From Heptranchias perlo (taxonomy: Eukaryota), in assembly GCF_035084215.1 (NCBI RefSeq), contig NC_090359.1, forward strand, positions 24,180,001 through 24,244,000: a DNA stretch of 64,000 nt, written 5' to 3'. Position 1 is the first letter of the stretch, and every line of letters starts with the position of its first letter. Under the pieces are notes generated by a model. It was given only the letters and a program-made list of their open reading frames with translations, made no database searches and was not told the origin of the DNA. The position numbers and the translations under genes were made by a program. Below, piece after piece: positions 46,801 through 49,800 of the stretch.

Positions 46801-49800
46801 ACAATGCATGAGGACATTGAGTGAGGACAATGTGCGAGGATAATGAGCGAAGACACTGCGTGAGGACAATGAGCGAGGACATTGAGTGAGGACAATGAGT
46901 GAGGATAATGAGCAAGGACAATGAGTGAGGACAATGAGTGAGGACAATGAGCTAGGACAATGAGCTAGGACAATGAGCTAGGACAATGAGTGAGGACAAT
47001 GAGTGAGGACACTGAGTGAGGACGATGAGTGAGGACAATGAGCGAGGACAATGAGTGAGGACAATGAGTGAGGACAATGAGTTTGGACACTGAGTGAGGA
47101 CAATGAGTGAGGACAATGAGCGAGGACAATGAGTGTGGACACTGACCGAGGACAATGAATGAGGATAATGTGCGAGGACAATGAGTGAGGACAATGCACA
47201 AGGACATTGAGTGAGGACATGGAGCGAGGACAATGAGTGAGGATAATGTGCGAGGACATTGAGTGAGGATAATGAGTGAGGACATTGAGCGAGGACAATG
47301 AGTGAGGATAATGAGCGAGGACAATGAGTGAGGACAATGAGTGAGGACATTGACCGAGGACAATGAATGAGGATAATGTGCGAGGACATTGAGTGAGGAT
47401 CATGAGTGAGGACATTGAGCGAGGACAATGAGTGAGGACATTGAGCAAGGACACTGAGTGAAGACAATGAGTGAGGGCATTGAGTGAGGACAATGAGTGA
47501 GGACAATGAGCGAGGACAATGAGTGAGGACAATGAGTGAGGACAATGAGCGAGGACAATGAATGAGGACAATGAGTGAGGACATGGAGCGAGGACGATGA
47601 TGTCAGAGAACTCAGATTACTTGTACCTTCACTCCTTTTCAGCCAATAAATTCCAATCAGCCAAGCAATTGCCAGCATGCCGAGATACAGCACGGATCTG
47701 ATGATCAGGATAATGCCGTGGCCCAGTTTGTGACTGTTTCTATCAGCAGCGTCTGTTGATGGCGCAGTCACTGAGGAGATTAACAGACCTGTCGTGGGGT
47801 GAAATATCCTTTCTGTGAAATACAGGAATTAACAACAACAATGTGACAGCGAAAGCCACAAATCAAATCGAGGGAAGTGACGGACCTCCTTCACACTCGA
47901 GAAACACGAGTAACACAGTTAGTGTCAGAGACCCTGGGGAGAGGGGTGTCAGTGTCACAGATCCTGGGGAGAGGGGTGTCAGAGACCCTGGGGAGAGGAG
48001 TGTCAGTGTCACAGATCCTGGGGAGAGGGGTGTCAGAGACCCTGGGGAGAGGGGTGTCAGAGACCCTGGGGAGAGGGGTGTCAGTGTCACAGATCCTGGG
48101 GAGAGGGGTGTCAGAGACCCTGGGGAGAGGGGTGTCAGTGTCACAGATCCTGGGGAGAGGGGTGTCAGAGACCCTGGGGAGAGGGGTGTCAGAGACCCTG
48201 GGGAGAGGAGTGTCAGTGTCAGAGACCCTGGGGAGAGGAGTGTCAGTGTCACAGACCCTGGGGAGAGGGGTGTCAGTGTCACAGACCCTGGGGAGAGGGG
48301 TGTCAGAGACCCTGGGGAGAGGAGTGTCAGTGTCACAGACCCTGGGGAGAGGGGTGTCAGTGTCACAGATCCTGGGGAGAGGGGTGTCAGAGACCCTGGG
48401 GAGAGGGGTGTCAGAGACCCTGGGGAGAGGGGTGTCAGTGTCACAGACCCTGGGGAGAGGAGTGTCAGTGTCAGAGACCCTGGGGAGAGGGGTGTCAGTG
48501 TCACAGACCCTGGGGAGAGGGGTGTCAGTGTCAGAGACCCTGGGGAGAGGAGTGTCAGTGTCAGAGACCCTGGGGAGAGGAGTGTCAGTGTCAGTGACCC
48601 TGGGGAGAGGAGTGTCAGTGTCAGAGACCCTGGGGAGAGGGGTGTCAGTGTCACAGACCCTGGGGAGAGGGGTGTCAGTGGCACAGACCCTGGGGAGAGG
48701 AGTGTCAGTGTCACAGACCCTGGGGAGAGGGGTGTCAGTGTCAGAGACCCTGGGGAGAGGAGTGTCAGTGTCACAGACCCTGGGGAGAGGAGTGTCAGTG
48801 TCAGAGACCCTGGGGAGAGGGGTGTCAGTGTCACAGACCCTGGGGAGAGGGGTGTCAGTGTCAGAGACCCTGGGGAGAGGGGTGTCAGTGTCTGAGACCC
48901 TGGGGAGAGGGGTGTCAGTGTCACAGACCCTGGGGAGAGGGGTGTCAGTGTCAGAGACCCTGGGGAGAGGGGTGTCAGTGTCACAGACCCTGGGGAGAGG
49001 AGTGTCAGTTTCAGAGGTTTAATAAAAACGTAGAGAGAGAAACAAGTCGATTGAAAAGGGTGTTAACCTCGTACAGTGAGGGTGGTCCAGGGATGATTTA
49101 CCTCATATCGATTCTACCCCCCAATGTCTCCACACGACAGAAATACTTCCTCGAGTCATTATCTTATTCTCTCTCCTTCCCCCACTATTCTACAAATCAC
49201 TTTCCATTCTGTATCAGACCTCCAGAGTCTCTGTTTCACTCCCCTGATTATTGGTAGCAGCCATTTTCGATCTTGGCCAAACCTCTTTCAAATTTGGAAC
49301 CTGATTAGCTGAAAACGGGACTCGAAGGTTTTTTCTCTAAAATTGTCGGCAAATTAAATTAAGGTTCGGCCCGGTTACAACTTTAGAACTCAATCAAAGG
49401 AGGGGCTTAATTAAAAACTCAGAGAAAGAAACACGGGGATCCCAAGGGGGGGCTTACCTCGTACGGTGAGGGCAGTCCCTGGGGTAGTTCGTGAAATCCC
49501 AATTTTATCCCCCCGTACATCCAATTTACAGAAATACGTCCTCGAGTCACTTTGTTTCAGCTGCTTTATGCGGATGGAGCCAGTATTCTCCACAATTGGG
49601 TTGCCCAGGTATTCGATCCGGCCTCGGTAGTCAGGGTGAACGAATTGCGTCCTGGCGTTGAACATAATTTCTCCGTTCGACAAAGCTGTTGTCCAAAGAA
49701 TGTTCATCACCCTGGGTCTGGACCAATCTTTGTAAGTGAAGGAGCAGGGTATTGTGATCGATTCTCCTTCCTCAGCCTCCAGGTGATCAAGCTGGATCAC

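Follow-up and report, generated by a model that had tools for sequence, protein, structure and literature searches.

Does the short-tailed PILR-like receptor encoded at this locus of Heptranchias perlo act as the activating partner of an ITIM-bearing neighbour, and if so, through which adaptor does it signal and where did its transmembrane (TM) exon come from? The window, i.e. the whole 64,000-nucleotide stretch that was analysed (NC_090359.1, positions 24,180,001 to 24,244,000), carries three genes on its minus strand, A, B and C, each with a leader exon and a PILR-like V exon. The segment highlighted by an initial annotation of this DNA belongs to a spliced stalk and TM exon of such a short-tailed receptor (gene B), and we judge it on balance probable that the conserved outer Arg of this exon pairs with an adaptor of the FcR-gamma/CD3-zeta type.

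All features described below lie on the minus strand unless stated otherwise. Exon models reproduced the RefSeq proteins P0003 and P0005 for gene B, P0004 for gene C and P0002 for gene A, which carry the RefSeq name PILR-beta-like. Gene B comprises a leader exon (52551..52593, from exon comparison and the model), a V exon (49458..49826; Pfam V-set, 1.9e-11, with PILR as the best PDB match in both sequence and fold), a stalk and TM exon of phase 1-1 (47627..47788) and a short tail exon without an ITIM (coding part 43847..43899, from contigs and the model). Its product is a single-V PILR-like receptor of 208 amino acids, whose tail is short and motif-free. Gene C is a near-identical copy located 11.4 kb away; its leader exon (63516..63558, from exon comparison and the model), its V exon (60356..60724, two nucleotide differences from gene B) and its stalk and TM exon (58993..59154, no differences) were placed by exon comparison, and the coding part of its tail exon (55253..55305) comes from the model that equals P0004. 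Gene A lies beside both. Its leader exon (41145..41187, from exon comparison) and V exon (38130..38498) are followed by a stalk and uncharged TM exon, also of phase 1-1 (36051..36224), and by four tail exons (32865-32838, 30732-30680, 29703-29660 and 26620-26489), the last of which contains a pair of ITIM-like motifs (26602 and 26530); these downstream features were assigned from P0002. The initial annotation had described gene B as the activating member of a pair with an ITIM-bearing receptor, and this description is supported.

The gene B exon had at first been drawn at 47627..47770. The minus strand of this segment encodes ...GHGIILIIRSVLYLGMLAIAWLIGIYWLKRSE, with the Arg codon at 47699-47697 (AGA, R168 of the 208-residue isoform) and the Tyr codon at 47687-47685, where the initial annotation had placed them. 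Contigs from four of four runs, which belong to one sample of one study and whose RNA nature is a guess, cover 47625-47790, with one loose end corresponding to the V exon of genes B and C and the other to the tail exon. Since the contigs run on into the V and tail exons at both boundaries, and allowing for shared splice dinucleotides, the exon extends from 47788 to 47627. The boundary at 47627 was thus correctly drawn, being the point at which the contigs join the tail exon, and the other boundary moves from 47770 to 47788, which is the acceptor that the contigs use. The site at 47770 was rejected as an acceptor: it is in frame, but is used neither in the contigs nor in the RefSeq models, whose acceptors are 47788 and 47812 (the upstream 47812 in model X1). 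The three in-frame AG acceptors at 47812, 47788 and 47770 would give stalks of different lengths, and 47788 is the only one seen in the contigs.

The Arg is the sole charged residue of the hydrophobic run and occupies position 5-6 of the best 21-23-residue hydrophobicity window, calculated on a rough scale, which agrees with the earlier placement of a lone Arg near the outer end of the TM. On the same rough scale, the first residue of the best 19-residue window comes immediately after the Arg, which is thereby left just outside the membrane core, and a helix predicted for residues 164-198 of the 216-residue isoform includes it. Protein atlas scores were 0.85 for the TM and 0.76 for the tail, and are to be read as leads only.

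V-domain searches combined with a search using a TM-exon profile gathered 14 models of this exon from eight species (Heptranchias, Cetorhinus, Carcharodon, two Scyliorhinus, Heterodontus, Hemitrygon and Hypanus). The Arg is kept in all 14, with the first Lys, Arg or Asn located 19 residues further on every time, while both the stalk and the tail vary. When gene C is omitted as identical to gene B, Leu-9, Ile-4, Leu-3, Leu+5, Trp+12, Ile+16 and Tyr+17 are invariant in 13/13. According to the exon model and the TM alignment, position +4 is Tyr in genes B and C, and elsewhere Ala (9), Val (2) or Thr (1); the Arg followed by Tyr at +4 is present in the gene B exon as first described, and fails as a conserved feature (2/14 models, both from the window). 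Alignment of the 12 orthologous TMs to that of gene B gave z values of 13.8-19. All 13 matches obtained when 8000 candidates were scored with the TM profile were elasmobranch V-set proteins (11 named PILR, one fused Heterodontus model and one uncharacterised protein); seven of them were part of the query alignment and six were not. The initial annotation had asked which ectodomains accompany the TM exon, and these matches point to PILR-like V domains. Judged by sequence comparison, the Arg TM exon is an old elasmobranch module that accompanies PILR-like V domains in eight species.

Some of the models show peculiarities. P0172 carries an extra, unrelated Ig domain in front and is probably a fused model. 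The Heterodontus RefSeq protein P0011 (named 'polymeric Ig receptor-like') joins three V exons to as many Arg-TM exons and one uncharged TM, and probably represents several PILR-like genes merged by annotation; the pairing of V domains with TMs in Heterodontus depends on this fused model. One Cetorhinus paralogue, P0006, has a second Arg in the middle of the TM, at +8.

The TM exon bears no detectable similarity to that of gene A, in line with the earlier reading. The local alignment of the two TMs scored 28 (z=1.2), a value equalled or bettered by 121 of 1000 shuffles, and profile-profile comparison returned a probability of 22.5%, with the aligned columns starting after the Arg. One of nine uncharged TMs compared reached z=2.7 (7/500 shuffles), which is unconvincing given nine tries. 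Searches with the TM profile yielded one chance-level match in the PDB, influenza BM2 (E 0.73), and nothing relevant in Pfam.

The initial annotation had explained this dissimilarity by the joining of a PILR-like V to a signalling module derived from NKp30, or from another receptor of the FcR-gamma type, with RxxxY as its mark. Such a capture would fit with a TM exon unrelated to that of gene A and with the phase 1-1 of both TM exons, which makes them exchangeable, and the accessible part of PMC6514059 describes NKp30 as carrying a TM Arg and partnering CD3-zeta and FcR-gamma. The Tyr at +4, however, occurs in none of the 12 orthologous TMs outside the window, no NCR3-named protein was found at E<=10 among the 8000 candidates scored with the TM profile (and none of the 13 matches is named NKp30 or NCR3), and nothing meaningful came from the PDB or Pfam. 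Since this Tyr is confined to genes B and C, we consider the RxxxY likeness to NKp30 a late private substitution that provides no evidence of descent, and RxxxY was discarded as an NKp30 signature. In addition, flanking TM residues matter little for assembly in the portion of PMC1440944 available; since a single residue suffices, a lone Arg can arise by point change and module capture is not needed. Descent from an NKp30-type module is thus very unlikely, although 25 hydrophobic residues may no longer suffice to recognise an ancient donor of this kind.

Of the charged TMs in the 150 best V-domain relatives, most carry Lys, the named ones belonging to turtles, a caecilian, frogs and one skate. 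The Lys of 16 such TMs is followed by 10-20 uncharged residues (median 12.5), a range whose upper end overlaps the 19 of the shark Arg (17 and 20, in two rows). This count excludes P0066, P0071, P0079, P0100, P0114, P0118, P0126, P0134, P0138 and P0147, whose TMs are acidic, doubtful or at the edge of the search window, and leaves aside the remaining Arg-type models of elasmobranchs, already included among the 14. The central TM Lys that is the hallmark of PILR-beta is absent from gene B, which has the outer Arg instead, and the difference noted initially between the two is borne out by the distance to the cytoplasmic edge (19 residues versus a median of 12.5 in the 16 Lys-type relatives). Xenopus models have a TM Arg with 15-16 uncharged residues after it, and two of them, P0052 and P0059, have Arg where another frog, P0037, has Lys at a similar TM position. 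The Xenopus Arg TMs (P0052, P0059 and P0165) were rejected as homologues of the shark module, since they scored 4-6 bits, values that uncharged TMs also reach (113 of 114 scored).

As far as can be read from these alignments, the PILR-like family appears to have acquired charged TMs on several occasions. The independent origin claimed initially is likely relative to tetrapod PILR-beta; it does not stand as a recent or local event, since the TM exon is found with PILR-like V domains in eight species. By eye, the TMs of two skate proteins look derived from the uncharged type: P0038 has a Lys, and the Arg of P0035 lies in what seems to be an insertion. Activating forms may thus have originated independently here too, unless the models are in error.

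Assignment of an adaptor relied on a rule for the position of Arg and Lys that was derived from mammalian receptors. In the available portion of PMC1440944, FcR-gamma partners carry an N-terminal TM Arg (at position 3 in FcalphaRI), and in DAP12 partners the residue is a Lys placed more centrally (basic residue at position 7-12); swapping Arg and Lys sharply cuts assembly, KIR K9R reducing assembly with DAP12 to 15%, and FcalphaRI shows no assembly with DAP12. The same text places the Asp pair of FcR-gamma at position 6. The shark Arg, at about position 5-6, is close to the position of this pair, which favours an adaptor of the FcR-gamma/CD3-zeta type. The outer-TM Arg would pair with the aspartates of such an adaptor and would thereby make gene B the activating partner of the ITIM-bearing gene A, and a Lys of separate origin, lying nearer the middle of the TM, would have given tetrapod PILR-beta its access to DAP12. 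By these position and side-chain rules, FcR-gamma/CD3-zeta is retained as the likeliest adaptor class named in the initial annotation, and we regard it as quite probable for gene B.

Siglec-14, which signals through DAP12, probably has a TM Arg, and the Arg of gene B could likewise couple to DAP12 (or DAP10), in which case signalling would resemble that of mammalian PILR-beta with another basic residue. DAP12 is the partner of PILR-beta and of activating Siglecs, and reviews, in the passages accessible, give 'lysine or arginine' for the Siglecs linked to it. The Arg-for-Lys difference among the frog models goes in the same direction, as do fish NITR and DICP receptors with charged TMs, which are linked to Dap12 and have Arg in bowfin (bioRxiv 2021.06.11.448072, accessible text). 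The shark Arg, however, is displaced outwards by approximately two helical turns relative to the median Lys (19 versus 12.5), and the results available from PMC1440944 show DAP12 disfavouring Arg in the KIR test and leaving FcalphaRI unassembled. We consider coupling to DAP12 or DAP10 unlikely as a whole; adaptor by adaptor, our analysis makes DAP12 decidedly unlikely for gene B, and both DAP10 (or a mixed use) and the lack of any adaptor very improbable.

A receptor without adaptor, with its Arg at the membrane interface, would be a non-signalling decoy or accessory protein. The best 19-residue window that begins just past the Arg, the motif-free tail and the V domain devoid of the sialic-acid Arg could all be accommodated by such a role, but the hydrophobic run before the Arg is conserved (Ile-Leu at -4/-3 in 13/13) and the Arg stays invariant where stalk and tail vary, and we regard this possibility as the most improbable of those weighed here. 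The supplement of PMC3964593 gave 0 matches for PILR, TYROBP, FCER1G, DAP12, CD247 and NKp30, and is probably uninformative.

The ectodomain of gene B consists of a single V-set domain with a Siglec-like fold and is closest to PILR. The top four PDB matches by sequence are PILR (best match at E 7.5e-11 and 45 bits, versus 1.4e-4 and 25 bits for NKp30), as are the top six Foldseek matches of the modelled domain (mean pLDDT 71); the best match of the gene A V domain is PILR-alpha (4.6e-21). The V domains of genes A and B are 66% identical, with 42 amino-acid differences in 122. Gene A keeps Trp-Gln before the G strand and an F-strand Arg that we take to be the PILR sialic-acid-binding residue, whereas the V domains of genes B and C have Lys in place of this Arg and lack Trp-Gln. 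In the membrane-proximal V of the 12 other Arg-TM models, the F-strand Arg is kept in eight and absent from four. The accessible text of PMC13358205 mentions a critical Arg without a number, which is consistent with a role in sialic-acid binding.

Comparison of the two V exons revealed 71 differences in 366 nucleotides; 42 codons differ non-synonymously and 4 synonymously, which gives dN/dS values, not amounting to a formal test, of 1.4 (NG86) to 2.0 (YN00). The changes fall in blocks between identical framework stretches, and the branch leading to the gene B/C V is long (0.47 versus 0.09). These sequence data suggest that the binding face of the gene B/C V was rebuilt, a feature that is arguably more interesting than the TM. 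Within the intron that follows the V exon of gene B lies a broken piece of an A-like V exon, corresponding to its 3' end and retaining the Arg motif (49068..49158, by exon comparison), and gene C has its counterpart at about 59966-60056 (-); the donor has decayed in both. These remnants, which lie between the V and TM exons, may be traces of an older V that was replaced.

Lineage, and not TM type, determines how the V domains group. In the V tree, Heptranchias A joins B/C with support values of 100/99; V domains of the Arg-TM and uncharged-TM types are identical at 121 of 123 positions in Heterodontus, and Hypanus V1 matches the ITIM protein P0051 at 112 of 119. A single clade of Arg-TM V domains was rejected by the AU test (p=6e-66, 11 rows versus 8), performed on a quick LG+G4 tree of 19 rows with groups set by TM type and after the first tree had been viewed. 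Between genes A and B, the leader and following intron show 4 differences in 1553 nucleotides, and the stretch just upstream of the V exon 0-2 per 50 nucleotides. The grouping of V domains by lineage, together with the age of the TM exon, points to concerted evolution as in Siglec-5/Siglec-14, for which the accessible part of PMC4042635 describes 5' parts homogenised by gene conversion and opposite signalling ends kept. Unlike that pair, the present genes have a PILR-like V without C2 domains, and their ligand-binding face is not homogenised. We infer that both TM exons were already neighbours before sharks and rays diverged and have been kept so, and that gene conversion or unequal crossing-over keeps feeding related leader, intron and V sequence to both TM types; in the activating V of Heptranchias, the binding face would have evaded this process, and sialic-acid binding of the PILR kind has probably been lost.

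Genes B and C lie in a tandem unit of 11.4 kb (window 40077-64000), are 99.8% identical in unique sequence and differ in the copy number of a 30-mer VNTR (38 versus 21 copies). The leader and intron of gene B are closer to those of gene A than to those of gene C (9 differences), which fits unequal crossing-over. B and C may also be a duplicated haplotype in the assembly.

The locus resembles the mammalian PILR-alpha/PILR-beta pair in its single V domain, with PILR as best match in sequence and fold, and in the placement of an ITIM gene beside short-tailed genes with a basic TM residue. It differs from that pair in that the activating and inhibitory TM exons have no relationship to each other, the V domains have diverged as described and gene B lacks the F-strand Arg; the shark Arg is also further out than the more central Lys of PILR-beta, which uses DAP12, the accessible results of PMC2211832 showing that DAP12, unlike CD3-zeta and FcR-gamma, raises the surface level of mouse PILR-beta. 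As for FcalphaRI, NKp46 and NKp30, no sequence relationship to the shark TM was detected in the profile searches described above, and NKp30 is set apart further by the weak ectodomain match and by the RxxxY spacing, which sharks do not conserve.

Taken further, sharks and rays might possess a PILR-type pair that runs on a non-tetrapod adaptor, in which an ancient Arg TM exon leads to FcR-gamma/CD3-zeta, the family having switched adaptor or invented its use twice, and in which the activating V of Heptranchias was rebuilt under selection towards ligands other than sialic acid, likely of pathogens; we advance this whole picture as tentative. If the adaptor prediction is true, PILR would offer a clean case of one paired-receptor ectodomain with different ITAM adaptors according to vertebrate lineage, and the shark system would directly test whether the mammalian rule (outer Arg for FcR-gamma/zeta, central Lys for DAP12) held in cartilaginous fish. 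The surprise is moderate, given that the genes are already auto-annotated as PILR-like and that activating TMs are already accepted to have originated independently more than once (PMC1440944 and PMC2211832, in their accessible parts). A literature search, with most subscription papers outside its reach, found no description of elasmobranch PILR-like pairs; the present comparison documents, across elasmobranchs, PILR-like loci of the paired type whose V domains evolve in concert.

The surroundings of the locus provide a further observation. Human cornifelin is located near the Siglec/LRC region. The window contains a PLAC8-family gene at about 15450-20142 (+), beyond the 3' end of gene A and in the opposite orientation to it, presumably cornifelin-like, whose Pfam match (PF04749, 2.3e-6) is below the curated cut-off.
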